Assembly: GCA_964642765.1 (NCBI GenBank)
Contig: CAZXRI010000002.1
Span: 1 to 24,208, forward strand
Direction: 5' to 3'
Length of the DNA: 24,208 bases
DNA from: an uncultured Methanosarcinales archaeon
GTDB taxonomy: Archaea > Nanobdellota > Nanobdellia > Woesearchaeales > CAZXRI01
In this document: piece by piece, positions 1,281 to 20,716 of the stretch
Layout of the letters: every line of letters starts with the position of its first letter
How positions within the stretch are numbered: the first letter of the stretch is position 1
The notes under the pieces: generated by a model
What the model was told of the DNA's origin: nothing
The model's input: the letters and a program-made list of their open reading frames with translations, nothing else
Database searches by the model: none
Translations under genes and position numbers: made by a program

Positions 1281-1295
1281 TTTATTATTTTATTA

Positions 1296-1341: not shown

Positions 1342-1353
1342 CTTATTGCAAAT

Positions 1354-1470
1354 ATGACACAAAATAAATCTGAAAACTTTGATAAACTCTGGGAAAGGAT
1401 TGAATCCATAAGGAAAGACCCAGAATCCATGAAAGCATTAGACGAATTAATCAAGATTCACACCTCTTAA
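1354..1470 (+). CDS. 38-aa small protein (MTQNKSENFDKLWERIESIRKDPESMKALDELIKIHTS), convergent with and overlapping the PIN gene 3' end
   Basis: Manual translation. TATAAA at 1330 lies 24 nt before the ATG, consistent with a leaderless archaeal promoter. Confidence 0.55.
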   Translation: MTQNKSENFDKLWERIESIRKDPESMKALDELIKIHTS

Positions 1471-1968: not shown

Positions 1969-1982
1969 ATTACTCCACTATC

Positions 1983-2032
1983 TCCATCCTAATCATCATC
2001 CACCTGCGAAATGTTTAAATATAAATGTTGCC
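1983..2032 (-). repeat. Cassette repeat R3 (type A), begins 9-aa leader MMIRMEIVE (1970..1999)
   Basis: tccatcctaatcatcatccacctgcgaaatgtttaaatataaatgttgcc; abuts the HEPN stop codon at 2033. Confidence 0.95.
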
Positions 2033-3107: not shown

Positions 3108-3158
3108 TTTTGATATTGAATAGTATTTATCTTGATATTCTTTGGTTTTAGTAATTCA

Positions 3159-3203
3159 CCATCCTCATCATCCACCTTCAAAACATTTAAATATAAAGCT
3201 TGC
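3159..3203 (-). repeat. Cassette repeat R4 (type B), begins 7-aa leader MMRMVNY (3148..3171)
   Basis: 45/45 identity with R2. Confidence 0.95.
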
Positions 3204-3216
3204 TTAAATGGTAATT

Positions 3217-3369
3217 ATGCCTCAAAAAACAAAAGACATAAACGACATAAACCCTGCAGATTATAATGACCCTGTTGAGTTAGCCAGAGATATAAAAAAA
3301 TTAATGCACACAGATTTTCTGGAGCAATATTCAAGCCTCAAAAAATCCATGAAAGCTAAATCTCATTAG
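3217..3369 (+). CDS. 50-aa small protein (MPQKTKDINDINPADYNDPVELARDIKKLMHTDFLEQYSSLKKSMKAKSH), convergent with and overlapping the PIN gene 3' end
   Basis: Manual translation. TATAAA at 3192 lies 25 nt before this ATG, nearly the same spacing as for 1354..1470. An alternative in-frame ATG is at 3208. Confidence 0.55.
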   Translation: MPQKTKDINDINPADYNDPVELARDIKKLMHTDFLEQYSSLKKSMKAKSH

Positions 3370-3847
3370 GCGACATTATTCTTATCTCGGATAGTCCATT
3401 CCTCTTAAGCACCTCGTTAATTTTTTTCTCCATATTCTTCAAGTGTTTCCTGTTATATGAAATAACATAATCCAAATCCTGAATGCTAGCAATTAAAATT
3501 ATTAGTATGTCTTCCTCTTTTATTCCTTGTGATTTAAATTCTTCTTCTATCTCATCAAAAGAGATTTTCTTAATATTCAGTCCTGCAATAATCTCAATCT
3601 TATCAATAAATTTCGTTGTTGCGTCCTTATAAAAATCCAAAATTTTATCTCTTAATTCCCTGAATTTCCATTTTCGCAGCAATATCTCAAAATTGGATGG
3701 AGTAATAATTTCAAATTCTCCCTTATTTGCTCTCTCTATAAATGATAGGCAATATTCTTTGCGCAAATCATTAGATGGAAAATAGGCAACTGTAATTACA
3801 TCTAAATCAACCATGATTCTTTTTTTGTTATCTTTAATTTGCATCAT
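3356..3847 (-). CDS. PIN-like domain protein starting inside repeat R5
   Basis: RIMVDLDVI, EEDILIILIA, DYVISYNRKHL fit the PIN pattern; 163 aa. Confidence 0.7.
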   Translation of the reverse strand: MMQIKDNKKRIMVDLDVITVAYFPSNDLRKEYCLSFIERANKGEFEIITPSNFEILLRKWKFRELRDKILDFYKDATTKFIDKIEIIAGLNIKKISFDEIEEEFKSQGIKEEDILIILIASIQDLDYVISYNRKHLKNMEKKINEVLKRNGLSEIRIMSPNEI

Positions 3848-3868
3848 CCACCTGCGAAATGTTTAAAT
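3842..3868 (-). repeat. Cassette repeat R5 (type A)
   Basis: catcatccacctgcgaaatgtttaaat, 27/27 identical to the matching part of R3; lies 5 nt from the YhcG stop. Confidence 0.95.
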
Positions 3869-3873
3869 CTCAT

Positions 3874-4845
3874 TCACTTCAACCTTTTAATTATCTCTTT
3901 CTCATCTGGCAATTTAACCTTATAATCAGACACAAAAATCTCTTTCCTCAAATCACCAAGAGCATAACGGACAGTTTCCTCATCTTTTGATTTACATATA
4001 ATTAAACCTATTGGCAACTTCTGTCCCTTTAGCCATCTATTTTCTTTGTACCAATTCAAGTAAGAATACATCTGGCTTACATGAGAATGCTTAAAGGATT
4101 CAATCTTGACCTCAACCAGAACATAACACATTAATCCAGCATGAAACAACTCCAAATCAACCTTATCATAATCCCCAGAAATTAACACAGGAACCTCTCT
4201 TCTACCGACAAAAAAATCCTGTCCTAACTCTCTTATGAAATCTTCAAACTTATTCAACAATTCATCTTTCAAATCCTTTTCCTTGAAATTATTTCTCAAC
4301 TCCAAAAAATCAAAATTATAAGTGCTTTTGAACACATCCTGAGGCATTAATTGTGTCGCAATTGGCGACAATTTTATTATTTCCCCTTTCTTAAATTTCT
4401 TTGCTGCATTATTTCTTATTTGTTCTCTAAGCTGGTTCCTTCCAAAACTATTCTTAATGGAGAGCATCTCATAAATTTTTCTCTCTTCATTGCTCTCAAC
4501 AGCAAGCAACTCGATATAATGCGACCAGCTTAATTCTGTCGCAACCTGCGACAATATTGGATATGTCTTATAAAATTGCAGCATTCTATATAATAATCTC
4601 TCCTCAAACCCTAAATCATTAGACAATTTAACAATTAGCCTATTCCCATAATCAGCCCTTTCTTTAAATCTGAATTCTTCCCTCGCAATTCGCTCGCCTA
4701 TTTGCCAATAAGTTTGAACCCTTAAATTATCAACTGATTTATATGCCTGTAACTTTGCTTTTTCCAGAAGGAATTTAATCTCATTTAAGACGATATTGTA
4801 GTTATCTAATCCTTCCTTTTTAATTATTTCTTCCATCCTCATCAT
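3874..4845 (-). CDS. YhcG/DUF1016-family PD-(D/E)XK nuclease-like protein
   Basis: YWQIGERI, YG..LI.KLS.DL, LSWSHYIELL, FIRELGQDFFVGR, VDL...LVEVK, SQMYSY; 323 aa; starts within repeat R6. Confidence 0.9.
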   Translation of the reverse strand: MMRMEEIIKKEGLDNYNIVLNEIKFLLEKAKLQAYKSVDNLRVQTYWQIGERIAREEFRFKERADYGNRLIVKLSNDLGFEERLLYRMLQFYKTYPILSQVATELSWSHYIELLAVESNEERKIYEMLSIKNSFGRNQLREQIRNNAAKKFKKGEIIKLSPIATQLMPQDVFKSTYNFDFLELRNNFKEKDLKDELLNKFEDFIRELGQDFFVGRREVPVLISGDYDKVDLELFHAGLMCYVLVEVKIESFKHSHVSQMYSYLNWYKENRWLKGQKLPIGLIICKSKDEETVRYALGDLRKEIFVSDYKVKLPDEKEIIKRLK

Positions 4846-4858
4846 CCACCTGCGAAAT
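4832..4858 (-). repeat. Cassette repeat R6 (type A, truncated; array boundary)
   Basis: tccatcctcatcatccacctgcgaaat, then diverges; lacks the gtttaaat segment. Confidence 0.9.
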
Positions 4859-4867
4859 CTTCAACCA

Positions 4868-4960
4868 TCATTCTATTATCTCCAGTATTAAGCTGTCTTT
4901 CCCTCTTGGAAATCTTCTTGCGTGGTGTTCTTCGTCTGAGTTTAGGTCAAGCTTTTCCAT
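4868..4960 (-). CDS. 30-aa hypothetical ORF between the 1116-aa gene and the array
   Basis: MEKLDLNSDEEHHARRFPRGKDSLILEIIE with GAGGAC upstream of ATG 4960; the ORF track extends it to 5065. Confidence 0.3.
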   Translation of the reverse strand: MEKLDLNSDEEHHARRFPRGKDSLILEIIE

Positions 4961-4991
4961 TTTGTCCTCGGTATTTTTTTTGAATAACATT

Positions 4992-7900
4992 TTACGCTGT
5001 GCCTGCATTAGCTGCGGCTCCTGTATCTGCTGCCTGTGCATTACCCTGATTAGATTGCCCCGCACTTCCTGAATTATCAGATGGCTCTTTGTTGAGTATT
5101 TCGCAAAAATCAGGCTGTCCGTTTATTGTTGTGGATTTGGCTTTCAAGCTGTCCTTGACATTTACCCATGTATCAACTGTTTGTGCAAGTGTTTCAAGAG
5201 TAAGCATTGTGCTGTAAGGAATGCACGAGCCGTGCCATCTTACAGCTTGTGTCCCTAAAGAAGAATCTTTATCACAAACATCCCTAAATCCCTTTCTTCC
5301 AAGAACCCATACTGTTGCAAAAGGATTTTCAAATGCGTTTCCAAGAGCCTTAAATGGTTGTATCAGGATATCAGTTAATCCGCCAATTGTTGAGCCTGTA
5401 AAATATTTGCATTTATTCAAGCGGAATTCCCTGTCGCAATCTGTTTTTGTTTGCAATCCTGTTGGTATAACATCCCGATAGCAAACAGCTTTCTCGCATT
5501 TCATCTGACGGTAATTCTGGATATTGGCAGCCATTCCAGGCAAGCAAGCACATCCAATAGCAAATACCCAATTCTTTTTTGCAAATTCAAGGTTTGATTG
5601 CTGAAGTCCGGCTAATACTGTTCCTCGAGTAATTTTAACATCATTTCCATCAGCATCAGTTGTTGTTCCAAGAGATTTTCCAAGAATAGTATTTTCCCCA
5701 AGCTGCCCTCCTGCTCCAAGTAAAGTATCCCTATACAAATCACATAGAGGAGCCTTGCCCACACCAACTGTTTTGCCGAGAATCGGAATTTTTCCTTCCT
5801 TGCCTTGACATGATACAAATCCGCACATAGTATCAAAATAATTACTGATTTTTTCATAGCTGTTAGATGTTGTTTTAAATGCCTGAGTAAGAGAAGCCTC
5901 TCCACTTCCACAAAAGAAACCTGCTGCACCAGCTGAAGCATCATTGCAATCTGCAAAAATAGCTCCGACATAGGAGATTACATTTATTGTCGCTTTATAG
6001 CCTGACCTTGTCCTGCATATTCCTTGTGCAAGATTTGCAACCTTGTCAATCCCATTAGCAATCTTATCCAAGCCTCCATTCACATCATCCTTAATATTAT
6101 CAATCTCATCCTGAAGATTTTCTTCGTCTGTTGATTTATCCCATCTTACAAAAACATTTGCCCTGAGAAGCTGCTGCTCTGGTGTTTTATAGACAACATT
6201 TCCGCATTTAACATTATACTGGACAAAGCATGCGTTTGTTGCACCGATAGCAAGAGATTCTTTTCCTGCGATATTTTGTGGAGTAATATGGAATTGTGCA
6301 AACCCTGAATATGAATTGCCGTTCTGCGAGAAGAAAATCTCCTTGTTTGGAAATTCATCACATTTCAGGACTGGGTTTACAGCCTCTGCCCCTTCTGAAC
6401 ATTTTCCCAAGTCATTAAGCTGGAAATAAATCGGAACAGTGTAATCAACCTGAGCCATTGAAATAAAAATAGATGAGTCAATCGGTGTAATGTAATCCTC
6501 GAGGATAACCATCTCAAAAAGCTGTCCGTCTTTTGGCGAGTCTTTGGTCTGCTTGACAGAAACCTTTTCTTCTTTCTCAACTTTGTTGCCAGCACCATCT
6601 ATAAATGTGAATTTTATTTTTGCATTATCAATTACTCCTGTCCTGTCAATCTTTGGAGTTTCTGCTGTGCATAGCCAGATGTTTTCCTGCTCATCAAACT
6701 CACATGGTATCTCAATTTTATTCCCGCCAATTATCACAGACGAGAAATCAGCATAAGCAGAAAGGATATTTTTCTCTTCAAGAACAGCGCTTATCTGGAT
6801 AATGTCTCCTGTTTTCAGAACATCTCCTATTCCAGAATCACTTTTCCCGAGGATAGAAATATCGTCTTTAATCTCGGGCTTTGTCTTATCGAGGATAACA
6901 GCAAGCGTTACAGCATCCTTTACAGCATTTCCGAGAATATCCTTTGAATCAGTGCCGATGCTTGCCTCATAAGTATCCTCGAGGAGATCTCCTATGTCTG
7001 CATTATTCCACTTGCATGTGAATGTTTTATCACCTGTGCATTCGCTTGCTGAGATTGTTTTTGAGCCAATGTGTAAGATAATATCAGAAGGGCTTATTCC
7101 AGTTACATCCTCGATTGTTGCTGCCAGATTTACACTTGACGAAACATAAATATTCCCATCTGCCGATGGTGTTCCTGATTGGATGGATTTTATTACTGGA
7201 CCAGCATCATCCTTTCCAAGTGCAATGTCAATCTGCGAGTTTGCTGCATCAACAGCATTCCCAAATATATCCTTGACAGAGAGGAGAACTTTTTTTGTTC
7301 CTTCTGCCTGAGGCATTAAGTCAAATTCCCAAATTAAAGTCAGGATGTTTCCGTTTCTTGAATTTGTCGTCGGAGAAACCAATTTAAGCGAAGGATTCAC
7401 CTCTGATAAGTCTGCTGTTATGCTCTGCAAATCTATATCTGCTCCGTCTATTGAAACTGAAAATTTAGCAGGAACTAATTTTCCCGGGAGTATATTTGAA
7501 ATTACCTTATTATTCCTGTCAGTCAGCTTTGCAGTTTCCTTCTTGATTGCCGGAGGAGTTTTGTCAACAGTAAATGTTTTGCATACTTCAGACGAGGATT
7601 TTTCAAATTTATCCTTTGCTTTTGCACAAACAGTTATATCTCCTGTTTCTGCATGAGAATAAGAAACTGATTTTCCTGTTATCGCACAACTGCTGTCAGC
7701 AAGACATTCTTCATTGCATTCAGCTATCATTTTATTATCAGCAGATTTTCCGAGGAAGAATTGCACAAGCGTTGTGCCAGAGCAGGTATTTTTATCTCCG
7801 TTATAACCATAATCAGCAACATCAAAATTAAGATATACATTTCCATTCGGAGATATTTTTTTTCCTTCAAAATCAGTTATGCCACCTATTTCAAATAGCG

Positions 7901-8342
7901 TAATCTGAGGCGCACGGTTATCAACAGTAAGAGAAACATCTTTTCTGTCAACAACATAACCAGCATCATCAACAAGGAGAATTGAGAATTTAGGAGTCTT
8001 TGTCGAGAATCTTTTTTTGCCTGATTCAGGATATTTCAATGTGCATGTCTGCAAGTCTGTTCCAGAAACGCAGGCAAAGAATCCAGATGGGATTGATGCA
8101 GAATCGTATAATATAATATTCTTTGTCAAATCAGCATCTGTGTCAAGCTTTGCTGCTATCTCGAATGTAATCTGATCATTGTCGCTGATTAGGTTTTCAA
8201 ATCCATTTGAGCCAGTAACTTTCACGCTGCCTATCCTTCCTGTTGGGACAGCAGAAACAAATGATATTGACGAGAAAGAAGAAAGCAGCATGATAAATAC
8301 AAGGAAAACTCCTCTATATTTAGCAGGCATCTTTTTCATCAT
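4992..8342 (-). CDS. Large exported protein: signal peptide, Ig-like beta repeats, Cys-rich C-terminal region (1116 aa)
   Basis: N-terminal KYR + hydrophobic stretch + VSA; recurrent VDxTPP/D..GN motifs typical of Ig-like surface domains; many Cys. Confidence 0.85.
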   Translation of the reverse strand: MMKKMPAKYRGVFLVFIMLLSSFSSISFVSAVPTGRIGSVKVTGSNGFENLISDNDQITFEIAAKLDTDADLTKNIILYDSASIPSGFFACVSGTDLQTCTLKYPESGKKRFSTKTPKFSILLVDDAGYVVDRKDVSLTVDNRAPQITLFEIGGITDFEGKKISPNGNVYLNFDVADYGYNGDKNTCSGTTLVQFFLGKSADNKMIAECNEECLADSSCAITGKSVSYSHAETGDITVCAKAKDKFEKSSSEVCKTFTVDKTPPAIKKETAKLTDRNNKVISNILPGKLVPAKFSVSIDGADIDLQSITADLSEVNPSLKLVSPTTNSRNGNILTLIWEFDLMPQAEGTKKVLLSVKDIFGNAVDAANSQIDIALGKDDAGPVIKSIQSGTPSADGNIYVSSSVNLAATIEDVTGISPSDIILHIGSKTISASECTGDKTFTCKWNNADIGDLLEDTYEASIGTDSKDILGNAVKDAVTLAVILDKTKPEIKDDISILGKSDSGIGDVLKTGDIIQISAVLEEKNILSAYADFSSVIIGGNKIEIPCEFDEQENIWLCTAETPKIDRTGVIDNAKIKFTFIDGAGNKVEKEEKVSVKQTKDSPKDGQLFEMVILEDYITPIDSSIFISMAQVDYTVPIYFQLNDLGKCSEGAEAVNPVLKCDEFPNKEIFFSQNGNSYSGFAQFHITPQNIAGKESLAIGATNACFVQYNVKCGNVVYKTPEQQLLRANVFVRWDKSTDEENLQDEIDNIKDDVNGGLDKIANGIDKVANLAQGICRTRSGYKATINVISYVGAIFADCNDASAGAAGFFCGSGEASLTQAFKTTSNSYEKISNYFDTMCGFVSCQGKEGKIPILGKTVGVGKAPLCDLYRDTLLGAGGQLGENTILGKSLGTTTDADGNDVKITRGTVLAGLQQSNLEFAKKNWVFAIGCACLPGMAANIQNYRQMKCEKAVCYRDVIPTGLQTKTDCDREFRLNKCKYFTGSTIGGLTDILIQPFKALGNAFENPFATVWVLGRKGFRDVCDKDSSLGTQAVRWHGSCIPYSTMLTLETLAQTVDTWVNVKDSLKAKSTTINGQPDFCEILNKEPSDNSGSAGQSNQGNAQAADTGAAANAGTA

Positions 8343-8500
8343 ATATCCTTCAGCTCCCTCTGGATTACTTCTAAATCATAGAGCTTCTGCTCCATCAATT
8401 CACGGGCAAGCATGGATTTTTTCTTGCCCAATTTTTTTGAAACTCTCTCAAGAAGGTCATCAATTTCCTTGCTTACTGTTATTCTGATTTGGATGCTCAT
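8339..8500 (-). CDS. 53-aa ribbon-helix-helix (CopG-like) regulator, translationally coupled to the 1116-aa gene
   Basis: MSIQIRITVSKEIDDLLERVSKKLGKKKSMLARELMEQKLYDLEVIQRELKDI; GAGGT SD; TGA overlaps the next ATG (ATGA). Below the ORF-track size cutoff. Confidence 0.8.
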   Translation of the reverse strand: MSIQIRITVSKEIDDLLERVSKKLGKKKSMLARELMEQKLYDLEVIQRELKDI

Positions 8501-8540
8501 CAGGAAAACCTCTTTTGGTGTTTTTTATTTATGGCATAAG

Positions 8541-8555
8541 TATATAAACTTTTCT
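8541..8555 (-). promoter_or_regulatory. Archaeal BRE-TATA promoter for the RHH / 1116-aa operon
   Basis: Minus strand reads AGAAAAG-TTTATATA, ending 40 nt upstream of ATG 8500. Confidence 0.7.
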
Positions 8556-8559
8556 ATGA

Positions 8560-8890
8560 CTTGATTGTTAATTAGATAGACTTAATTAAGACTTTAGATA
8601 GCCTATTTAGTGTTAAAGTAAGTTATGGATATAGAGATAAACTAAGTTAGTCATTATTAGTCCTTAGAATATACTAAATTTAGTATTTATTAGGTATATT
8701 TTAAGTTAAAATCTTTTTCTGTCCCTTAGATTATTATTGAAAAGGCATTGTTTAGACTATAAAAAGCATATATTAATACTTAATTAGTACTTTAAAAATC
8801 TGTAATATATATAGTGGTAGATTTATACATTATTTAGACTAGATTATGCTTTTTGCATTTTATACTCACACACTGAAATAGAATTAGAAA
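8560..8890. other. Very AT-rich divergent intergenic region with 13 TTAG motifs on + strand and a 16-bp palindrome
   Basis: TTAG at 8572, 8594, 8607, 8647, 8657, 8664, 8680, 8690, 8726, 8752, 8784, 8834, 8884 versus 2 CTAA; ATACTAAATTTAGTAT at 8671-8686. Confidence 0.7.
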
Positions 8891-8892
8891 TA

Positions 8893-8912
8893 TTTATATA
8901 TGTATATATACA
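8893..8912 (+). promoter_or_regulatory. vapBC TATA box with adjacent palindromic candidate operator
   Basis: TTTATATA (8893-8900) immediately followed by the perfect palindrome TGTATATATACA (8901-8912). Confidence 0.55.
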
Positions 8913-8925
8913 AACACATATAAAC

Positions 8926-9090
8926 ATGACCAAAATAATCTCGCTTTCAGACAAAGCCTATGAAATCCTGAAAAACCAAAAGCAGAAAAAGGAATCATTT
9001 ACAGATGTAATTCTAAGATTATCACAGGAACAAAAATCCTCTTCGATAATTGAATTTGCAGGCATCCTGAATGAGAGGCAGAAAAAATGA
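8926..9090 (+). CDS. vapB: Archaeal VapB-type antitoxin (54 aa)
   Basis: MTKIISLSDKAYEILKNQKQKKESFTDVILRL matches the T-I-x-SD-x-AY...ESF(S/T)DVI-x-RL pattern; ATGA overlap with vapC. Missing from the ORF track. Confidence 0.85.
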   Translation: MTKIISLSDKAYEILKNQKQKKESFTDVILRLSQEQKSSSIIEFAGILNERQKK

Positions 9091-9485
9091 TGATGCTGGA
9101 TACTGACATAATAATAGAATTGCTTAAAGGAAACAAGGAAGCAATTGAAAAAGTTTCCTCGCTGAGCCAGAGCAATATCCAGCTATGCACCTCTGCAATA
9201 AACGTCCATGAAATTTTAACATCTACAAGTCCTCCTGACAAAAAAACACTAAACAGCATTCTGGATGCGCTTTCAAGCCTGAAAATATTAGAGCTTGATT
9301 TTGATTCAGCAAAAAAATCCTATGAGATATACGCAAGTTTAAAAATAAGCAATGCCAAAAACACAGATGAAAATCATCTAAGGGTTTTGGCAGCATCAAT
9401 CGCAATCACAAAAGGAATTCCTTTAATTACAAGAAACACAAAAGGATATTCAGGAATTCCAAACCTAAAGATAGAAACTTGGTAG
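9087..9485 (+). CDS. vapC: VapC PIN toxin (possibly degenerate)
   Basis: MLDTDIII, SAINVHEI, LITRNTK, IPNLKIETW. Confidence 0.85.
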   Translation: MMMLDTDIIIELLKGNKEAIEKVSSLSQSNIQLCTSAINVHEILTSTSPPDKKTLNSILDALSSLKILELDFDSAKKSYEIYASLKISNAKNTDENHLRVLAASIAITKGIPLITRNTKGYSGIPNLKIETW

Positions 9486-9501: not shown

Positions 9502-11457
9502 ATGTATCAGAACAACAGAAAATCACAGGTTACAATATTCATTATCCTCGGAGTAATCATATTAATTGCAATTGGGCTGTTCGTATATTATAGGGCTGTC
9601 CTTATACCAAAAGAAAAAACAGTTATCGAGGAAATTGCTCCTGTGAAAGACTATATTGACTCGTGCATTTCAATGATAGGAAAAGATGGATTGGACACGC
9701 TTGGATTAAACGGAGGATTTATCTATTTCCCTCCTGAGATTGATTCAAAGCCATACAGCTATCTTGCAACATCTCCTATAAAAGAGCTGAAAAATCCTTA
9801 TTGGTGGTATGATGGAATTAACAACACACCGACGCTGGAATTCATGCGGGAAGAGCTTTCAAAATATGCAAATGATAACATAAAAGAATGCCTTGGAGAC
9901 TTTGATGCATTAAATGATGATTTTGAGATAAAAGAGATGGGAGAGCTTTCTGCTGTTGCAAAAATAAATGAAAATGATGTTACATTCGACGTGAAATATC
10001 CTATTCAGATAATCAGCAGGCAGAACGCAACAAAAACAAGGATGGATAAATTCAAGATAACCCTTCCTGTCAGGTTGAAAAAAATGCACGAGCTTGCAAA
10101 TGCAATCATGGGCTCGCAATACAGGGAAGCATTCATAGAGAAAAAGGCAATGGACTTGATTGTTCTCGACAATGACATTCCAACAACAGATGTTGAAATA
10201 AGCTGCAAGAAAAAGACTTGGAATGTTGAAGAGGTAAGAAATAAACTAAAGAGACTTCTTAGCGTAAACATCCCTTACATAAGAGTCGCAAACACAAACT
10301 ATGACACAACAATTTTCGTGCCAAATCCCGACGAAAAAGATGAGACTTACAAAAATTCATATTATAATTACCATTACATCTGGTCAGCAACAGATGTGAA
10401 ATATCCTGAAACTCATGTTGGATTTACCTATGATCCAAAATGGGAAACATCATTCAGGGCTTTTCCAAGCGACGGAAGAACAATGCAATCCAATGGTCAG
10501 AAAGGAACAGAAATGTTGTCATCTTTATGCTTGCATATATGGCATTTCACTTATGATGTTGGCTTTCCTGTAAAAGTAACAATATCCGACGAGAAAACAT
10601 CGGGCCATGATGAGTACACATTTATCTTTGCATTCAAGGCATCAATAAACCACAACAAGCCAGACAGGATAAACCGCTTATCGCAAGGATACACATCTCG
10701 GGACATAATCAGGGATGAGGAGTTCTGCTCTGACACAAGCAATGACATAACAATTATTCCAGAAGATTCCGTCGAAAAAATCTCTGTTTCAGATGTGAAT
10801 GTAACTTTTATCTGCGGCGGATATGAATGTGATTTGGGAACTGTCGAGAGGGATTATAATTCAGGAGGCGAGGCATTCATGACAAAAAAAGTGCCTTACT
10901 GTGTTGCAGGCTACATCAAAACAAAAGGAGAGAATTACATTGATGCAGAAATTCCAGTGCAGACAGACAGGGAAAGAAGCTATACTGTTTCATTAACTCC
11001 GATAAGGGCTTTCCTGAATTACAAGGTTGTAAAGCATTCATTCAACAGCAACAATATCCAGAGTGCTAATTCAAATAATAATATTCCAGCTGGCACTTAT
11101 TCCGTCGGAGAAGCAGAGGAGTTTGCCTCAAATGAAAGGGCAACAATCACAGTAAGCAAAAAGGACGAGGACTTTGAGTCTTACGGAGTTTATCCTGACA
11201 ACATGTTCCCGATAAAAATCCTCGACAAGAAAGATGATGTATATGATGTCTCTGTTTATCTCCTGAGAGATGAGGAAATTGTCGGTGGCTATGTCGGAGA
11301 ATTAAATGTGCAAGCCAGCGAACTGATAAACTCCGACGAGATAATATTCCATGTTATCGAATTAAATCCGCTTCCAAAAGATGAGACAGAAAAATTCCTG
11401 TTCATAGGCGGGCTTCCGACATATTCAAAAAATGCTCCGAGCCCTGAAATAAAATAA
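9502..11457 (+). CDS. 651-aa surface protein with class III (pilin-like) signal peptide
   Basis: NRKSQ|VTIFIILGVIILIAIGLFVYY; the remainder is hydrophilic, beta-rich and contains several Cys. Confidence 0.8.
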   Translation: MYQNNRKSQVTIFIILGVIILIAIGLFVYYRAVLIPKEKTVIEEIAPVKDYIDSCISMIGKDGLDTLGLNGGFIYFPPEIDSKPYSYLATSPIKELKNPYWWYDGINNTPTLEFMREELSKYANDNIKECLGDFDALNDDFEIKEMGELSAVAKINENDVTFDVKYPIQIISRQNATKTRMDKFKITLPVRLKKMHELANAIMGSQYREAFIEKKAMDLIVLDNDIPTTDVEISCKKKTWNVEEVRNKLKRLLSVNIPYIRVANTNYDTTIFVPNPDEKDETYKNSYYNYHYIWSATDVKYPETHVGFTYDPKWETSFRAFPSDGRTMQSNGQKGTEMLSSLCLHIWHFTYDVGFPVKVTISDEKTSGHDEYTFIFAFKASINHNKPDRINRLSQGYTSRDIIRDEEFCSDTSNDITIIPEDSVEKISVSDVNVTFICGGYECDLGTVERDYNSGGEAFMTKKVPYCVAGYIKTKGENYIDAEIPVQTDRERSYTVSLTPIRAFLNYKVVKHSFNSNNIQSANSNNNIPAGTYSVGEAEEFASNERATITVSKKDEDFESYGVYPDNMFPIKILDKKDDVYDVSVYLLRDEEIVGGYVGELNVQASELINSDEIIFHVIELNPLPKDETEKFLFIGGLPTYSKNAPSPEIK

Positions 11458-11479: not shown

Positions 11480-14400
11480 ATGTCCAAACAAAACAAGGCA
11501 AAAATGATTCCAGCAACAAAAATAATTCATGTAATCCTAATAGTTATCCTCATAGCGAACATAGTTCATGCTATCGACGATATTCGGATTGATATAGAAA
11601 TCCCTCAGACACACAATTCAGAAAAGCTTGATGTTTCAGGAACAACTGAAAAGTCTGCATCTGTTGTTGTGCTTGTAAATGGGATGAAACAGCAGGAAAT
11701 TTCACCTGAGAACAATCCAGACGGTAAATTCACACTAAACCTTATCCTTGCAAAAGACAGCACAAACAAAATAAAAATTACAGCAAGCAAAGAAGATAAA
11801 TCAGCAGAGAAAGAATTTGATGTAACAGTTGATACCAATTCTCCAACTCTTGTTATTGAGCCAATCAAGGATATACTTATTGAGAAAAACCTCGTCGTAA
11901 AAGGAAAAGTCAGCAAGGAAGTTACTGTTGATATTTTCCTCGGAAGAGGCAAGCTGGATAATGTCAAGCCTGCAAAAGTTTCAGGATTAAAAGTTGCTGA
12001 TTCAGAGAATAATTTAATGGACTTTGTTCACATTGAATGGAACAAGAACAGTGAAGATGACATAGACAAGTATATTATATATAGGGAAGATGTTGGAATT
12101 CTCGACACAAATCCGTCTGGAACTGTTTTTGTCAGGGACTTGAAAGTTAATTCAGACACAGAATATGTTTATCGCGTTGCTGCTCTTGATGCATCAGGAA
12201 ATGTTGGAGACAAGTCAGAGCCGCTGAAAATTAAGACTCTTGCAGGAGACAGGAAAAATATTCCAAAGCCAATTGGCCAGAAAGTATCCCAAGAGATTGA
12301 CAGGGCTGTGAAAAGCGTTAAGACAACCAATACTTTCGAGGAGGAAATTCCTCTTTCTTCAGACGGTGATTATCATATCACAATTATTGCAACAGACAAT
12401 GCAGGAAACAGGGCAATTTACAAAAAGAATTTTCTCCTTGACACAAAAGGGCCAAAGATAGAATCAATAACTCCGAGAAGCGGCTCATTTATTTATGAAT
12501 ATGCAGCAAACAGCGTCAAGATAGAAGGAGTTACAAGCCCGAATGTTGAAGTTAAGCTTTTCCTTGACAAAAATGCAGTCGAGAAATTACTTTCCACAAC
12601 ATTGACAGAGCAGCAGGCACTTTTGTATGACAAGGATGTTTACCAGAAACTAAAGGAATCCTATTCAACAAAATCCGACGATAAAGGTAGGTTTGTTTTC
12701 AACAAGGTAAATCTGCTGAATTATGTAAGCGCAAATTTTGCTCCAACTGAGGTTGATCCAAAGGATTTCAATAGAAACAATGATGATACGCAAGGCATTT
12801 CAAGGCAGAATTCTGTTGAGATTGTTATTTTGGCAGCAGATAAATTCGGCAGGTTTGACCAGAAAAGATTACATTACAGATTAGGAACATGCTGGTCAGG
12901 AAACCTTACATGGGATGTGCGTGTTCTCAGCGAATTCCAATCACCAACTTTCTTAAGCACAGAAAGGCTTGCTGAAGGAACAGAAACAATTTACTTTTAT
13001 CTTAATTTCAGCTATCTGGGAGAGTCTTCAGACGCTGGTGCAAGAATCCAAAGCCTGCAGCTCGCAAACGCATGCGATGACTTTGCCAAAGACAATCCGC
13101 GATACAACATAAGCTGCTCAATCATGAAAAATAACTGCGTTACAAAATCAAGCTCAAATAAAAGAACATGGTATGTTGCATGCCCTCTTGCTGGTGTTGA
13201 CGGAATGGACAGATGGCTGAAAGATGACTGGAAAAGCTTTGCAAAGGCTGTTCACAATGAAATGAGTTTCCCATTCAGGATAAGGATTGGATATACAGAA
13301 AGAAAGCAATCTCAGGATGCAAACGATAATACAATTGACTCAAGACAAGTCCAGACAACCTGCGACGAGGTTTCGTATGTTGTTGACAGCTCAAAGATTG
13401 ATCCAAGAAGTGTTCTGCCTGATTTCCTTCTCAGGGATTCAATCAAATGGCTCAACTCCTCGATAAAGGCAATTGACAAGGCACAGGGATATGTAAGGAC
13501 TGTCCTGAACTTCGTCGGAATAGGATGTGTTGGCTCTATATTATTCAAGTTCGGCACAACTGTTTGGAGAGAAACAACATGCAATCTCGAGGGAGTAAGA
13601 GATAGGGCTGATGCAACAATTCCAAAAAACTTGAAATGCCCTCTAACAAAAGAAGATAGAAACAAGCTTACAAATCAGGAGCTTCTTGAAAGATGTCCAA
13701 GCTGCTCAGCACAATGGGATTTTGAGTCAAAACTTTATGGTGTTTATCGAGGATTGTGCGACAGGGTTTTCTGCCACACTGCTCCTGCAAAATGGACAGA
13801 GAGCAAACCTGACGACGAATTAGTAAAAAAACAGTTTGAGATAAAAACACAATGCGGCGAAAAGGATGAAAGCCTGCAAGGACAGCCATTATTAGAGAGA
13901 AGCTGCTCAGCATGGCTCGACGAGGATTTAGACAGAGAAAAAATATCTGCACAAGGAGCAGGAGATACATGCTATCAGGCGCAGATAATCAGGGAAGATG
14001 ACGCAGCAAAATCAAAATATGGAATGGTTTTCATAAAATCAAGTGAGCAGGCATTCAGGGAATCTGGTGTTTACAAGTTCACAGCAGTTTCAAAAGTTTC
14101 AGAGAACCAAAAATCAGCCAAATCCTCAGTCGAGAAATACTATACAGATGACTTGTTTGTCAAGGAATTCAAAGGAAGGTTTATGACAGCGAGAACAGAC
14201 ATGTGCGCTGATGTGTGCAATAAAAGAGGATATACAAATTCCACATGCGGTGATTCTAATGATGCTGTCCAGCTTGAAAATCCGACTGTAGTAAGCAACA
14301 GGCAGGAAGCATATACTAAATTATTTGGAAATGGATTTAATTCTGCCGCAAAATACAAAACACTAAGAGTCGGCTATACAGCAGATTGCTTGTTTGGAAA

Positions 14401-17400
14401 TTATGAAAAAGAAAAAAGCGTAATGAGCAAGCCTCCAACAAAAGATTATACAGACGGGCTTTTGAATAAGCAGGCAAATGACCTTCCTCATGAAGACGAA
14501 TGTATTTGTGTTAATGAGGATAGTGTTGAATTAGGGAAATATTACACTGCAAAGGATGTAAGTAGCTATGAAACTGATCCAACTAAATCAAAACAACTAT
14601 TTCCTGATACTCAAGACAGCGAATATCCACCATTTGATTACAGGTATTACAAGATTAAATTTAAGGCAAAAAGTCAAGGCACTACAGAGCCAATTACATC
14701 AACAGCTAATACTGACAATATTCATGACAGATACAACCCTGCTCGATATCTCGAAGGAAGAGACCAATATGCATGCTTTGGCCAGGATGATTGGGTAAGC
14801 AAGGCACTTGGAAGAGGAGATAATACATTAACATTGGATCCGTTCAGAAGCCATACAGCAGCTTTCCAGTGTGGATGTATTTCAGGAATAAACAATCGCC
14901 TGAATACAGTTAAAAACTTAATGAGTGCAATGCAGAACTGCCTGATTACAGTCAAGGAAACAGGAACAGCAGATGCAGGAGTATGCAAGGAGCTTTTCAC
15001 CCAGCATGTCTGCGGCTTGGCATGGCAAGCAATATCATCTTTCACAAACCAATGCAATCCAGAATCATCAGAGGCGAACAGCACATACTCAGAGCCAGGC
15101 ATAAAAACTATTTTCTCACAGGGGCTTAAGTCTGTTTATACAGCATCTGAAGAAACCCAGAAAGAGATTCAGGAAGAGTATGGCAATGCCCAGCTTACAA
15201 ACCTTCTTGGATTTGGTGAAGAAGGTATCTCGAGGAAAATATGCCTTGCTGCATTTGGCTATGACTGGAATCTTGACATGGATAATATTATCGGAGCATC
15301 ATACACAACACCATACTCAACACTTGTGCTGCCTGCAACAAAGTCAAGAGAATTCCTGACCTATGATCCAAAAACATACAGTGCTGTCTATGAATACAGG
15401 TCTTCATGGCTCATTAATCCAGGATGTGATATTCGGGATTATGATGTTTACCTAAGCTGCGTTTCACAAAATGAAATGGGCAAGTATGATGGGATTGACT
15501 GCACAAAGCAGGATGATGAAACAGGAAACTGCGCATGCTTATCTGCAAATCTCGAGAAGGAACAAACCCTGAAATTTTACGACGGGAAAAGGCTCGCGCA
15601 AGGAAGCCTTGAAAATCGGGACAGGCATGAAGTAATCACATCCCAATACAAGTATGACCATCTTAAATTTGTATTAAGGCCTGATGCAAGAATAAGAGGA
15701 GCAGCAAATGTTAGGCAGGGACAAGCTGTAAGCAACCTCGCAGCAAAATGTCTTCCAGAAGGACATGAAAACGGTGTATTCTATTATCCGATAAAAGACA
15801 AGAGTGCCAGAGACTTAAAAATATGCTATGTTGATTCAAACACAGGAACATTCTCATGCCCTCAGGCTGATTTGTTTTTCGGCCAGAGAGTTACTGCATA
15901 TTTTGATGATGATGGAATGATGCTTAATGAAATCCCTCTCGGCCAGTATGGCAGGGCAAGAACATCAGCTATTGAAATCCCTGTCGGAAGCGACATAAAG
16001 CTAACATCATCTGTCTGGAAAGCGCAAGGAAAGGATGTGTGCCTGCACATTTACTCGCCTGAAAACAAGCAGATAGATTTCATGACAGGAATTAATTATG
16101 TCGGAAAATCTGAATATCCAGAGGCATATATTTCACAGGCAACAATCACCAACAACAGGATGGAATTTGTTGACCAGATTGATTATGAAATTATTAACGA
16201 CATGATTGGTGCAGGAGCAATCTCGCCTAATGCAGACATAAGCACAACAATCACATTCAGGGATTCAAACAATGACGGAGTAATTGACCTTGACTATGGC
16301 AGTGAAGATAAGGTTCATTTCACAGACAGCAAATTTATCTCAGGCATAGACGAGGAAAAGGATGGAATATCAATAGCAAAATACAAGGAATCGCAAAAGC
16401 ATGTTGACCTGACGAATAAATTAGATTTGGGAGGAGAGCCAGGGATAATAATTTACAAGCAAGACTTGAAGAAGAACGAGATGTTTATCCTAATAACATC
16501 AGTTACACTTCCAGGAGCACAAACAGGAAACCCTCAAAAATATGTCGAGAAAACATTCAGGTATCTTCCAGAGAACAGGGCTAATCAGGAGGAGAGATTT
16601 ACCTTGAATCTTGACCTTGTTCATTTAAAGTCAGACGCAGAATTTTTCACAGGGCCGGAAGATTGCAGCAAAGAGGATATTGTTGATTATCAGGACAGCG
16701 ATAAAGGCTCGAGAAGAACTTACAGCATTGTTGTTAAGAGGGAAGCTGCAAAGCCGATTATAACCAGAGAAAATAAGCTTGCAAAGGCAAAAGAATTCGC
16801 TGCTGTCCTTGGCATCGAGCAGAAAAAGATTGACAGCGCAAAAAACATGGATGAGCTTTTGAGCCTTGCTCCAAGTGCTGATGCAGAAACAGCAGAAAGA
16901 TTAATTGTGTTTTACAATGACATACTTACACTCGACGAAAGCCTTGCAAATGTTCATTTCCTGAAAGCGCTTGCAGAGGAAAAAGCTGCAGAAAAGGATC
17001 CCAGTAAAAAAGATGATGCAATTCTATCTTATGAAAAGGCAATGAGAATAGATTCCAAATATTTTATACAGAGTGTATCTTCAGGTCAAAGAATTCCAAA
17101 TGATGATTTAAAACTCCGAGCAACGTTGAAGATAATTGGATTCGTCAAGCAAAAAGATGTGCCAAGTGATGCTTTCATCAAATCAGTCCAGAGAGGTTTA
17201 GGGATAAGCCCTGTTGATGGCATTGTCGGACAGAGAACATCAGGAGAGATTAACAGAATCCTTAATGAGCTTAAGAGAATGAATGTCTTGGGCAATCCAA
17301 ATAATGTAAATCTCGAGTTAGGAAAGGATTATTATGTTATCCCTTCATACGGTAATGACATAAGCCTCAAGGAGCATTTTGCTGAATTACAGGAGAATAT

Positions 17401-18142
17401 ACCAATTATATCTGCTGTGAAAAAAGAGCCTGAAAGATTCTCAATGTTCCTTAATAGTGCAGAGCATAGGATTTTGTTTGACAGGGATAAGAATGATTAT
17501 TTTATCGAGGGAACTGAAACTTCTGCGAGATTAGGAAATAGTCCTGCTGTTGTGTTTATTGTGCCAAGGGTTGAGATTGCAGATAAAAAGCCTGAAATAC
17601 CTCCATCCAGAGTCAATTATGTTTATTTCGACGATAAAAATGCAAACGAGCAGAAATATACTGATGCTGTTTATAGGATTTCGCTGGATAACAATCTTGA
17701 CCCTAAGATAACAAAAGCATTTATACAGAAGGAAACAGGAGGCAAATGGAATGCTGATGCTTTAAGCTATTGTGGAGCTGTTGGCTTGATGCAGATAATG
17801 CCATGCACAGGAGCAGGCAGAGAATGCTTTGATAATACAGGAATTGATACAGGAAACTATCTCAGAACATATTGTTTTGGGAATAAGGATGCTTATAATT
17901 GTGAGGTTAACAAAAAAAGAGTAGATTCAGGAAATGATCCAATAGCAAATAAGCTGAAAGACCCTGAGTTTAATATTCTATGCGGTGTGCAATATATTAA
18001 TTTCCTTAAGAAGAATAGTGGCGGAGAGATTTATGACATTGCTTTATTGTATAACAACAATAATAAAGAATATGCAAATGATGTGAAAGCTAATTATGAC
18101 ACTCTCCAGAAAAAGGAAGCTGACAACATACCTGATAATTGA
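11480..18142 (+). CDS. 2220-aa giant exported protein: Ig-like/FN3 domains, Cys-rich core, TPR-like segment, putative PG-binding segment, C-terminal SLT/GH23 lytic transglycosylase
   Basis: Signal peptide; FN3 (IEWNKN...YIIYR...EYVYRVAALDASGNVG); VQRGLGISPVDGIVGQRT; IQKETGG (Glu2085), GAVGLMQIMP, DPEFNILCGVQY, ALLYN. Confidence 0.85.
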   Translation: MSKQNKAKMIPATKIIHVILIVILIANIVHAIDDIRIDIEIPQTHNSEKLDVSGTTEKSASVVVLVNGMKQQEISPENNPDGKFTLNLILAKDSTNKIKITASKEDKSAEKEFDVTVDTNSPTLVIEPIKDILIEKNLVVKGKVSKEVTVDIFLGRGKLDNVKPAKVSGLKVADSENNLMDFVHIEWNKNSEDDIDKYIIYREDVGILDTNPSGTVFVRDLKVNSDTEYVYRVAALDASGNVGDKSEPLKIKTLAGDRKNIPKPIGQKVSQEIDRAVKSVKTTNTFEEEIPLSSDGDYHITIIATDNAGNRAIYKKNFLLDTKGPKIESITPRSGSFIYEYAANSVKIEGVTSPNVEVKLFLDKNAVEKLLSTTLTEQQALLYDKDVYQKLKESYSTKSDDKGRFVFNKVNLLNYVSANFAPTEVDPKDFNRNNDDTQGISRQNSVEIVILAADKFGRFDQKRLHYRLGTCWSGNLTWDVRVLSEFQSPTFLSTERLAEGTETIYFYLNFSYLGESSDAGARIQSLQLANACDDFAKDNPRYNISCSIMKNNCVTKSSSNKRTWYVACPLAGVDGMDRWLKDDWKSFAKAVHNEMSFPFRIRIGYTERKQSQDANDNTIDSRQVQTTCDEVSYVVDSSKIDPRSVLPDFLLRDSIKWLNSSIKAIDKAQGYVRTVLNFVGIGCVGSILFKFGTTVWRETTCNLEGVRDRADATIPKNLKCPLTKEDRNKLTNQELLERCPSCSAQWDFESKLYGVYRGLCDRVFCHTAPAKWTESKPDDELVKKQFEIKTQCGEKDESLQGQPLLERSCSAWLDEDLDREKISAQGAGDTCYQAQIIREDDAAKSKYGMVFIKSSEQAFRESGVYKFTAVSKVSENQKSAKSSVEKYYTDDLFVKEFKGRFMTARTDMCADVCNKRGYTNSTCGDSNDAVQLENPTVVSNRQEAYTKLFGNGFNSAAKYKTLRVGYTADCLFGNYEKEKSVMSKPPTKDYTDGLLNKQANDLPHEDECICVNEDSVELGKYYTAKDVSSYETDPTKSKQLFPDTQDSEYPPFDYRYYKIKFKAKSQGTTEPITSTANTDNIHDRYNPARYLEGRDQYACFGQDDWVSKALGRGDNTLTLDPFRSHTAAFQCGCISGINNRLNTVKNLMSAMQNCLITVKETGTADAGVCKELFTQHVCGLAWQAISSFTNQCNPESSEANSTYSEPGIKTIFSQGLKSVYTASEETQKEIQEEYGNAQLTNLLGFGEEGISRKICLAAFGYDWNLDMDNIIGASYTTPYSTLVLPATKSREFLTYDPKTYSAVYEYRSSWLINPGCDIRDYDVYLSCVSQNEMGKYDGIDCTKQDDETGNCACLSANLEKEQTLKFYDGKRLAQGSLENRDRHEVITSQYKYDHLKFVLRPDARIRGAANVRQGQAVSNLAAKCLPEGHENGVFYYPIKDKSARDLKICYVDSNTGTFSCPQADLFFGQRVTAYFDDDGMMLNEIPLGQYGRARTSAIEIPVGSDIKLTSSVWKAQGKDVCLHIYSPENKQIDFMTGINYVGKSEYPEAYISQATITNNRMEFVDQIDYEIINDMIGAGAISPNADISTTITFRDSNNDGVIDLDYGSEDKVHFTDSKFISGIDEEKDGISIAKYKESQKHVDLTNKLDLGGEPGIIIYKQDLKKNEMFILITSVTLPGAQTGNPQKYVEKTFRYLPENRANQEERFTLNLDLVHLKSDAEFFTGPEDCSKEDIVDYQDSDKGSRRTYSIVVKREAAKPIITRENKLAKAKEFAAVLGIEQKKIDSAKNMDELLSLAPSADAETAERLIVFYNDILTLDESLANVHFLKALAEEKAAEKDPSKKDDAILSYEKAMRIDSKYFIQSVSSGQRIPNDDLKLRATLKIIGFVKQKDVPSDAFIKSVQRGLGISPVDGIVGQRTSGEINRILNELKRMNVLGNPNNVNLELGKDYYVIPSYGNDISLKEHFAELQENIPIISAVKKEPERFSMFLNSAEHRILFDRDKNDYFIEGTETSARLGNSPAVVFIVPRVEIADKKPEIPPSRVNYVYFDDKNANEQKYTDAVYRISLDNNLDPKITKAFIQKETGGKWNADALSYCGAVGLMQIMPCTGAGRECFDNTGIDTGNYLRTYCFGNKDAYNCEVNKKRVDSGNDPIANKLKDPEFNILCGVQYINFLKKNSGGEIYDIALLYNNNNKEYANDVKANYDTLQKKEADNIPDN

Positions 18143-18444: not shown

Positions 18445-18807
18445 ATGTTAAAATTTCTGGTTGATGAAAGCACAGGAAACAAGGTAAGCAGGGCATTGAG
18501 AGAAAGTGGTTATGACACAAGCTATTGCGGTGAATTCTTGTTAGGGTATCCAGATGAAGAGATTATTAAAAAGGCATTAGGCGGTAAAAGAGTAATTATA
18601 ACAAATGACAAAGATTTTGGAGAGATAATATTTAGACAGGAAAAATTAAGTTGGGGTGTAATATTTCTTCGTTTAAAAGTTGACACACCTGCCAATAGAA
18701 TAAAATATGCCTTGGCAACAATAAAACAACTTGATATACAGTTAGAAAAGAATTTTGTAATAGTTTCTGAGAATAAGATAAGAATCCGTAGGATAAAATC
18801 ATTATAA
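18445..18807 (+). CDS. DUF5615 PIN-like toxin
   Basis: KFLVDES, PDEEII, IITNDKDFGE, GVIFLR; adjacent to DUF433. Confidence 0.88.
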   Translation: MLKFLVDESTGNKVSRALRESGYDTSYCGEFLLGYPDEEIIKKALGGKRVIITNDKDFGEIIFRQEKLSWGVIFLRLKVDTPANRIKYALATIKQLDIQLEKNFVIVSENKIRIRRIKSL

Positions 18808-19167: not shown

Positions 19168-19260
19168 ATGAAATTGCCATTAGTTTCCAGCGACGAGATA
19201 GTAAAATTACTTCAGAAGGAAGGTTTCTTATTCACAAGGCAAAAGGGTTCTCATGAATAA
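19168..19260 (+). pseudogene. hicA: Truncated HicA toxin (30 aa)
   Basis: MKLPLVSSDEIVKLLQKEGFLFTRQKGSHE-stop: the HicA N-terminus ends one residue after the GSH motif. Confidence 0.8.
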
Positions 19261-20086
19261 AATGCAACAAAACATCCTGCTCAAATCCCTGAAATCCTCT
19301 TTCTCTGCGATAAAGTCTCATATCCTTCTTTCATTCATCCTGCTTATCCTCGAGATTGGCTTTGTTGTTTCACTCGGTATTGTGATTGTTCCAAGCTCTG
19401 TCAACATTATGGTTAATGCACAGGATATCCTGAATTATGCAGAGAGCCTGAATCTCGACGAGAGTTCGCTTGGGAGTAATCTTAAGGAGATGCCAAATGC
19501 ACTTGGTGATGATCCTTTGTTTATTTACAGGAAATTTAAGGAGATGATAAGCCAGATAATATTCACGCTTATTGTCTCGTCGGCAATTATCCTTGTTTTC
19601 AGCACAATCAACTGGAGCCTTACACACCAGCTGTTTGAGAAGTTTGATGCAAAGGAATTTTTCAGGAAGCTTTGGAAATCATTTCTTGCAAATCTTCTTT
19701 TCATCGGAATTTCAATCTTGTTTATTATCGTTTTTTTCCAGCAGTTTTATCTTGATTTAGTCGAGAAAGCTGGGTTTTTCATTGGTCTTGCAATATTTGT
19801 TCTTGCCTTGATTTTTTATTTCATGATTGTCTGCCTCGGGCTTGTGCATCTGAAACTGTCTGGAATGATAAAGGGCTTGTTTTCAGTAGGGACTAAGAAG
19901 GCTTATTATCTTGTTCCTGCTTTTATCCTGAACATTCTGGTAATGTCAGGCTTCTGGCTTTTATCGTATGTTCTTCAGGAGAAGAATTACTTTCTGCTGA
20001 TGGGAATGATTATCCTGAGTTTTGTCTGGATTGTTCTCTCGAGAGTGTTTTGGATAGGGATGTGCAGGGAACTGCCACAAAATTAA
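19253..20086 (+). CDS. Multi-pass membrane protein, unknown function
   Basis: 277 aa with roughly six hydrophobic stretches. Confidence 0.75.
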   Translation: MNKMQQNILLKSLKSSFSAIKSHILLSFILLILEIGFVVSLGIVIVPSSVNIMVNAQDILNYAESLNLDESSLGSNLKEMPNALGDDPLFIYRKFKEMISQIIFTLIVSSAIILVFSTINWSLTHQLFEKFDAKEFFRKLWKSFLANLLFIGISILFIIVFFQQFYLDLVEKAGFFIGLAIFVLALIFYFMIVCLGLVHLKLSGMIKGLFSVGTKKAYYLVPAFILNILVMSGFWLLSYVLQEKNYFLLMGMIILSFVWIVLSRVFWIGMCRELPQN

Positions 20087-20113: not shown

Positions 20114-20716
20114 TTATTCTGAACCAGATTCAGCAGAACTTTCAGCAACTTCACCAGAACTCTCTGAATTACCAGATTCTTCCTGAGAAGATTCTCCTGA
20201 TGAGCCATTATTGTTTTCCGAGGAAACTTTAGCATCCAATGTTTCTGGTTCAGACGAAGATTCTGCATTAGATTCTTTCCCTTTGTTATCATCATGTTTC
20301 TCAACGTTATATTTAGTAAGCAATTCAACAGCATATGTCAATTCTACAACCTGCTCGTCTGTAAGATTAAGCTCTGCTGCTTTTATTGAGATTCCCCTTG
20401 TCAAATATTTTGCATCCTTACTGTATAAAGAACTTGTCGAGATTCTCGGTTCAAATAAATGCCCGAGCAGAACTCCTGCCAATCCGCCCCATAGTATTGT
20501 CGGAAAGCCACCATACAAAGCACCTATTATGGCACCTGCAGCTCCTCCCCAGAATGATTTATCGCCGAATTTATAGTCTATACCTGAAATGCTCATGCCT
20601 TTTATTGGAGAGATTGGAGAATTATTTACAGAGTATTCTAAAGAAGCCAGAGGCATAGCTGGATTATAAGTTTTGTTTATCGTCGGATTTGGAATGTATT
20701 CCTGAATGAGTGCCAT
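20114..20716 (-). CDS. Hypothetical protein with Gly-rich hydrophobic hairpin and acidic Ser/Glu-rich tail
   Basis: WGGAAGAIIGALYGG...WGGLAGVLLG; C-terminal SSGESSQEESGNSESSGEVAESSAESGSE. Confidence 0.65.
   Translation of the reverse strand: MALIQEYIPNPTINKTYNPAMPLASLEYSVNNSPISPIKGMSISGIDYKFGDKSFWGGAAGAIIGALYGGFPTILWGGLAGVLLGHLFEPRISTSSLYSKDAKYLTRGISIKAAELNLTDEQVVELTYAVELLTKYNVEKHDDNKGKESNAESSSEPETLDAKVSSENNNGSSGESSQEESGNSESSGEVAESSAESGSE

Follow-up and report, generated by a model that had tools for sequence, protein, structure and literature searches.

The 24,208-nt stretch of contig CAZXRI010000002.1 analysed here (assembly GCA_964642765.1, forward strand; hereafter the window, to which all coordinates refer) encodes a giant protein, P0001, that ends in a real SLT domain of the GH23 type with its predicted catalytic motif set intact. 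Sequence comparison with its homologues, P0002 to P0011, of which P0002 is the single close orthologue, indicates that the tail bearing this domain (aa 1760-2220) is a recent and rare accretion on an old envelope component present across the order. The explanation that we favour, and that taken as a whole we consider moderately probable, is that the giant is a Sec-exported, disulfide-rich envelope protein of a Woesearchaeota-type DPANN archaeon, and that its tail would dock on the murein of a neighbouring bacterium and cleave it through Glu2085, locally opening the wall. Attachment to, or breaching of, bacterial walls is the most economical reading; sequence does not reveal whether it would serve attachment, penetration, feeding or antagonism.

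The original prediction, made from the letters of the window, had read SLT/GH23 motifs in their proper order with the catalytic glutamate encoded at 17732-17734, and had proposed profile searches and a structure prediction as checks. Every motif lies where it was placed, and the Pfam model PF01464, the alignment and the predicted fold agree on an assignment to SLT that is far beyond chance. PF01464 (gathering cut-off 21.3 bits) matches the whole protein at 36.7 bits (E 3.4e-9) and its C-terminal 371 aa at 42.7 bits (E 4.8e-11), the best NCBIfam models for the domain are EmtA, MltC and a flagellar transglycosylase, and a sequence search of the PDB returned MltE and MltC-type transglycosylases only, MltE aligning in two collinear stretches that set Glu2085 on its catalytic glutamate. 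When the SLT domain of P0001 was aligned with its best matches from 1.8 billion cluster representatives (55 sequences in all), Glu2085 and three positions of motif II, the two Gly and the Gln of GLMQ, proved invariant, and Ser2096, the Pro of MP, the Pro and Asn of DPxxN, and Tyr2191 are conserved in at least 90% of the sequences. Motif II reads GAVGLMQIMP (GLMQI at 17783-17797), the motif III block NDPIANKL...DPEFNILCGVQY begins at 17933, and the motif IV region, ALLYNN, occupies 18041-18058. The placement of the motif IV tyrosine depends on the method, MAFFT setting Tyr2191 on the near-invariant Tyr and a HMMER pairwise alignment with MltE setting Tyr2198 (KEYAND) on SYANG. In an AlphaFold model of the tail the predicted local distance difference test (pLDDT) exceeds 95 across aa 2044-2214, for which a lysozyme-like, mostly helical fold is predicted, and the top structural neighbours of this part are all lytic transglycosylases (MltF, Slt, MltC, Slt70 and MltE; Z 11-14.5, root-mean-square deviation 2.1-2.6 Å, about 125 residues), as the original prediction would have it. 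A Foldseek search with the whole 461-aa tail gave weak global E-values (best 2e-3) because the middle part of the model is of low confidence, and comparison at the level of the domain was used instead. The SLT domain is probably active on peptidoglycan.

The orthologue P0002 is 61% identical to the giant overall and collinear with it through the tail. Across the SLT domain the two are 49.7% identical and share the catalytic Glu, GLMQ, DPExN, YN and six of six Cys, and the retention of these features at about 50% identity argues that the tail is under constraint. Outside the orthologue the best match to the domain among the 1.8 billion representatives reaches E 3e-8. In typical SLT matches 7-15 residues separate GLMQ from DPxxN; here the interval holds the 44-aa insertion listed in Table 1, and the loop that follows YN is shorter than usual. 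Similar insertions occur in the metagenomic SLT proteins P0017, P0059 and P0065. One of the insertion-bearing SLT genes adjoins a gene for a T2SSE-type ATPase and another adjoins one for a FEN1-type nuclease, which is no more than a hint that the source of the tail was an SLT domain that archaea already possessed. On L029, a JGI metagenome contig, the P0017 gene stands last in a cluster (1888-9122) that also encodes a 751-aa ATPase of the T2SSE family and a 698-aa protein and holds several small open reading frames (ORFs). The cluster may specify a machine of the pilus or transfer type that brings its own enzyme for opening the wall.

Upstream of the SLT domain lies the segment, containing VQRGLGISPVDGIVGQRT at 17186-17239, that had been likened to PG_binding_1. 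The resemblance holds in the orthologue, the collinear segment of which passes PF01471 at 28.1 bits (E 2.3e-6, cut-off 23). The segments of P0001 and P0002 are 54.5% identical, and a profile built from these two sequences finds as its top PDB match, weakly, the PG-binding domain of the L,D-transpeptidase 5bmq (E 0.032). We read the segment as a diverged module of the PG_binding_1 type, presumably homologous by descent, although the P0001 sequence alone does not demonstrate this homology.

The tail and the remainder of the protein differ greatly in distribution. P0003 to P0011 are 31-41% identical to the giant and cover it from aa 37 to about 1760 (BLAST alignments end at 1412-1762), beyond which they diverge; none of the nine carries an SLT domain, their tails holding Ig-like or unrecognised sequence only. 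The core was found in 27 of 41 sampled genomes of the order, closed ones included, and in these 41 its position never coincides with an SLT match outside the present genome. The full 461-aa tail was found only in this genome among 401 of the order, and an exhaustive search of the 1.8 billion representatives recovered it in P0002 only. Because the core is order-wide and the tail is restricted to P0001 and P0002, the tail is taken to be a recent, rare addition. Swappable enzyme 'warheads' on the C-terminal tails of eight members that lack SLT were also considered, and Pfam returned weak Ig-like, Y_Y_Y or chance matches only, so that an architecture like that of polymorphic toxins is not supported.

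By itself the SLT domain is no rarity in the order: 29 of the 41 genomes have it, single-contig ones included, and some of the order's small SLT proteins also bear LysM or Peptidase_M23, both of which are murein-specific modules. Five other large SLT proteins (1041-1691 aa) were found, with the SLT domain N-terminal, central or C-terminal and with M23 in three of the five, and none of them is similar to the giant by BLAST at E<=1e-3. The large SLT proteins of the order are thus heterogeneous, with SLT joined to several unrelated scaffolds, and its occurrence on several scaffolds, often with M23, argues for repeated selection for murein activity. The repeated pairing of SLT with M23 or LysM is the best indirect evidence that the SLT domains of this lineage act on murein. 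The proteins that combine M23 and SLT (L031, L033 and L035, on G039:C9, G037:C1 and G029:C27; 1051-1691 aa) have, on their domain content, a predicted twofold capacity to degrade murein, although the archaea that encode them produce none.

The body of the giant has the features expected of an envelope component. Its only hydrophobic stretch above threshold, aa 15-33 (Kyte-Doolittle value 2.44), belongs to the N-terminal signal sequence, and its homologues carry precomputed fn3 and Big_13 matches. Of its 46 Cys, 33 are kept in at least 90% of the 11 family members, a signature of a disulfide-bonded exported protein. An AlphaFold model of part of the core (aa 1050-1500, from the 11-sequence alignment) had a mean pLDDT of 44 and was unusable, and an ESM Atlas feature search of the core was uninformative, giving generic galactose-binding-like leads only, with a top score of 0.79.

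These parts can be assembled into a mechanism. A giant of about 1760 residues, found across the order, would in this sublineage have gained a 460-residue tail consisting of linker, PG_binding_1-like module, spacer and SLT domain, and this tail, opposite the signal peptide, would form the end most distant from the cell. Its SLT groove and its PG-binding-like module would dock on glycan strands in the murein of a neighbouring bacterium, and Glu2085, acting as single acid/base, would cleave the beta-1,4 bond between N-acetylmuramic acid (MurNAc) and N-acetylglucosamine (GlcNAc) and leave a 1,6-anhydroMurNAc end. Local opening of the bacterial wall could then lead to attachment, to membrane access or to the scavenging of muropeptides.

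Several observations weigh against this reading. No C-terminal anchor was found by a hydrophobicity scan of the giant, in which just the N-terminal segment exceeds the threshold; the term 'surface-displayed' in the original prediction is therefore too strong for a protein with a signal peptide and no such anchor, whereas the attachment to or breaching of walls that it also proposed is supported by the intact SLT domain, by the relatives with M23 or LysM and by a search of the 80%-complete genome that turned up no PBP or SEDS gene. PF01471 does not match the window's own PG-binding-like segment (aa 1870-1950) even at E<=10, nor the whole protein, so that of the two Pfam searches that had been proposed the one for SLT succeeded and the one for PG_binding_1 failed on the giant itself; a six-frame search of the genome with the same model was also without a match, and AlphaFold predicts helices in the segment at pLDDT <50, from an alignment that has a depth of two sequences there. 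The catalytic Glu is followed by Thr (KET) in place of the usual Ser, which P0002 retains, and the counterpart of AYNAG is LYNNN. Several groundwater metagenomes contain the sequence, all of the runs that hold it being DNA runs and its depth there 3-5, and, as the genome is 80% complete, the absence of genes for murein synthesis is provisional. Finally, the fold alone cannot fix the substrate or the lytic mechanism, because a GH23 chitinase matches it at Z 11.6. The GH23 family also includes chitinases and goose-type lysozymes, and the enzyme might act on some other glycan, such as chitin or chitooligosaccharides, a wall polymer of a host archaeon (e.g. pseudomurein) or the archaeon's own surface glycans, with no bacterial partner implied. 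Structural matches at Z 11.4-11.6 include goose-type lysozyme and the GH23 chitinase of Ralstonia sp. A-471, the domain is very divergent, with its insertion next to the active-site motifs, and to our knowledge all cultivated DPANN archaea have archaeal hosts. Against this, the motifs (E-S/T, GLMQ, DPxxN, YN) correspond to those of the family-1 murein transglycosylases, which fill all top structural ranks, the orthologue has a PG_binding_1 module, SLT in relatives is fused to M23 or LysM, and pseudomurein lacks MurNAc and is beta-1,3-linked; we consider action on another glycan unlikely. It is also conceivable that the tail only binds, the SLT fold serving as an adhesin on glycan strands with little or no turnover. 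The substitutions just named, a Cys (Cys2098) at the position of MltE Ser75, and the giant adhesin-like scaffold that carries the domain would all accord with this, but the catalytic Glu, Ser2096, Gly, Gln, Pro, Asn and Tyr are kept in both orthologues despite a divergence of about 50%, and P0002 has the canonical E-S, which makes a purely binding function quite improbable.

Two further explanations concern the origin of the DNA and the wall of the archaeon itself, and both are poorly supported. The assembly (1.35 Mb in 248 contigs) is a metagenome-assembled genome (MAG) of low coverage, and the junction of core and tail is crossed by a contig in only one of four runs, which is probably the source run, the other three being too thin, so that a misbinned bacterial, candidate phyla radiation (CPR) or viral contig, or a chimera of an archaeal giant gene with a bacterial SLT gene, must be considered. 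The original prediction had named bacterial taxonomy of the contig as a ground for rejecting its reading, and the evidence is instead for an archaeal source. S8e and RpoN are present in the genome, and both models match only archaeal controls; archaeal small-subunit rRNA was not found in it and was probably not assembled. The tetranucleotide profile of the contig is the second closest to the bin mean among 99 contigs of at least 5 kb, its guanine-plus-cytosine content is typical, its tRNA methyltransferases have archaeal models as their best matches, and the full-length homologues of the giant are named 'Candidatus Woesearchaeota archaeon' in the source databases. Core, tail and flanking genes recur together at 61% identity in an independent groundwater assembly, where the 65-kb contig of the orthologue also encodes a prolyl-tRNA synthetase (ProRS) of archaeal type; one error-free contig spans 16321-16869, across the junction; and the core occurs in closed genomes of the order. 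With archaeal markers, a central contig, shared synteny, a junction contig and no viral signal, misbinning, chimerism and viral origin are all unlikely, and an artefact of any such kind has in our estimate only a very slight chance of being the explanation. That the SLT domain remodels a murein-like wall of the archaeon's own, as a housekeeping autolysin, would require such a wall. DPANN genomes do hold many bacterial-type genes (PMC8204110), and this one has a single Mur_ligase_M match, at G000:C49:4794-5210 (-). That match holds an in-frame TAA, which may point to a pseudogene, to a pair of genes or to an error in the assembly, the model also matches archaeal control genomes, and neither penicillin-binding protein (PBP) nor SEDS, M23 or Amidase_2 genes were found in the 80%-complete genome; an own murein wall is for the latter reason unlikely, and a housekeeping role for the enzyme scarcely credible.

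If the tail does act on bacterial murein, it may mark a change of partner, in which a Woesearchaeales sublineage refitted its ancestral giant envelope protein, an attachment protein, with a murein-cutting tip and now lives attached to, or preys on, bacteria in place of archaea. We regard this extension as doubtful; if true, it would provide the first molecular handle on episymbiosis of an archaeon on a bacterium, and the four-gene cluster around the giant would be its undescribed attachment apparatus. We know of no DPANN archaeon that has been shown to use a bacterial host, and the chief case that genomes make for DPANN archaea with such hosts comes from murein-cutting domains on proteins that archaea export. 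The giant is a clean test case in this regard: its predicted catalytic set is intact, E2085Q is available as a defined control mutant, P0002 is the one close orthologue to set beside it, and because the scaffold is conserved across the order, relatives with and without the tail can be compared.

The concept of a large archaeal SLT protein directed at murein is already known, and the giant is a well-documented further example. Castelle et al. (2021; PMC8204110) described large extracellular SLT proteins of up to 3000 aa in Woesearchaeota and Pacearchaeota ('fam00969') and named Rinke et al. (2013) and Castelle et al. (2015) as having seen single cases before. They proposed that the proteins attach to bacterial walls or degrade them, and that bacteria may be episymbiotic partners of these archaea. 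Vigneron et al. (2022; PMC9723730) reported GH23 'large lytic murein transglycosylase' genes in Woesearchaeota MAGs and proposed predation on bacteria, and Strock et al. (2025; PMC12352652) cite such findings as evidence that archaea act antagonistically towards bacteria. The statement in the original prediction that the domain alone is not new is accordingly correct, and since PMC8204110 and PMC9723730 propose the same role, its interpretation is the published one. The giant resembles the proteins of these two studies in its archaeal group, in being a very large exported SLT/GH23 protein and in the role proposed for it; unlike them it carries SLT as a rare C-terminal addition, other members of its own order-wide family being without the domain. 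What is added here is the domain anatomy of the tail, a check of its integrity, its recognition as a rare addition to an order-wide family in a conserved cluster, and the heterogeneity of SLT proteins in the order.

Several well-known wall-opening enzymes bear comparison with the SLT domain. MltE/EmtA, MltC, MltF, Slt70/Slt and LtgA share its fold and its motif order (Glu, GLMQ, DPxxN..G..Y and, as placed by MAFFT, YN), whereas identity to these bacterial family-1 enzymes is 18-26% and the domain of the giant differs in its insertion, its six conserved Cys, E-T for E-S and the shorter loop after YN. The bacterial enzymes are periplasmic or lipoproteins and act on their own wall; the carrier here is an archaeal giant. 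The internal core protein gp16 of phage T7 and the type VI effector Tse3, each a structural match at Z 10.8, are much larger proteins with an SLT-fold domain that opens murein locally, be it that of another cell or the cell's own; VirB1-type specialised transglycosylases, which belong to secretion systems, would be a further parallel. Unlike gp16 and Tse3, with which homology is limited to the SLT fold, the giant is adjoined by no phage structural or secretion-system genes, and PHROGs gave no viral structural signal.

Table 1. Coordinates in the window of the giant gene, its predicted parts and the neighbouring cluster genes.
Feature	Residues	Position	Strand	Remarks
Giant secreted protein gene (P0001)	1-2220	11480..18142	+	Open for 2220 codons; 2220 aa; homologues P0002-P0011 from Woesearchaeota
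Signal peptide or signal anchor	1-31	11480..11572	+	K-rich n-region, hydrophobic core, VHA before ID; cleavage presumed
Ig-like / fn3-like domain array	37-450	11588..12829	+	Pfam matches to Big_13, Glucodextran_B and Big_6, all sub-threshold
Cys-rich conserved core of the giant family	451-1759	12830..16756	+	Collinear with P0002-P0011, 31-61% identity
Helical linker, start of the lineage-specific tail	1760-1860	16757..17059	+	Six helices, pLDDT 80-95; common to P0002 only
Degenerate PG_binding_1-like segment with DGIVGQRT	1891-1945	17150..17314	+	Pfam match of the orthologue and weak profile match
Beta-rich spacer	1946-2043	17315..17608	+	Strands predicted at low confidence; 24.5% identity to P0002
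SLT / GH23 family-1 lytic transglycosylase domain	2044-2214	17609..18121	+	Pfam, NCBIfam, PDB search, alignment, AlphaFold and structure matches
Predicted catalytic acid/base codon	Glu2085	17732..17734	+	Aligns with the MltE catalytic Glu; invariant in the 55-sequence alignment
44-aa Cys-bearing insertion, GLMQ to DPxxN	2113-2156	17816..17947	+	pLDDT 88-97; 59% identity to P0002
1116-aa secreted Ig-like Cys-rich protein, cluster member		4992..8342	-	Homologues in L012 (61%), L014 (24%) and L016 (22%); signal peptide, 31 Cys
651-aa protein, one N-terminal membrane helix, upstream partner		9502..11457	+	In L012, L016 and L014 the gene immediately before the giant is 75%, 36% and 34% identical
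277-aa protein, six membrane helices, downstream partner		19253..20086	+	276-aa homologue directly after the giant in L016, E 8e-17

The genes next to the giant recur with it. Homologues of the 1116-aa, 651-aa and 277-aa proteins adjoin the giant in distant Woesearchaeota (L012, L014 and L016), none of the three has a Pfam, NCBIfam or PHROGs match, and together with the giant they may form an undescribed envelope or attachment apparatus. A comparison of the giant with the 1116-aa protein found nothing significant by BLAST (best E 0.64). A Cys module of the form CxC-x20-C-x14-C-x8-C has been suggested at 14870-15013 in the giant and at 5409-5552 in the 1116-aa protein, aligned by BLAST at E 28 only, and the copy in the giant falls within aa 1100-1400, where the core is best conserved across the order.

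Other genes are interspersed with this cluster or flank it. A PIN-like/Mut7-C (DUF5615) gene at 18445-18807 (+) lies between the giant and the 277-aa gene, and it looks like an inserted cassette of the toxin type because the 276-aa gene directly follows the giant in L014 and L016. A PIN gene at 9087-9485 separates the 1116-aa and 651-aa genes and does so likewise in L012. Beyond the 277-aa gene, a 200-aa ORF at 20114-20716 (-) has a Gly-rich hydrophobic middle, a long acidic tail rich in Ser, Glu and Gly, and no family match, and at the other end of the window, from 1 to 4860, genes for PIN, HEPN/nucleotidyltransferase and YhcG/DUF1016 nuclease proteins are densely packed.

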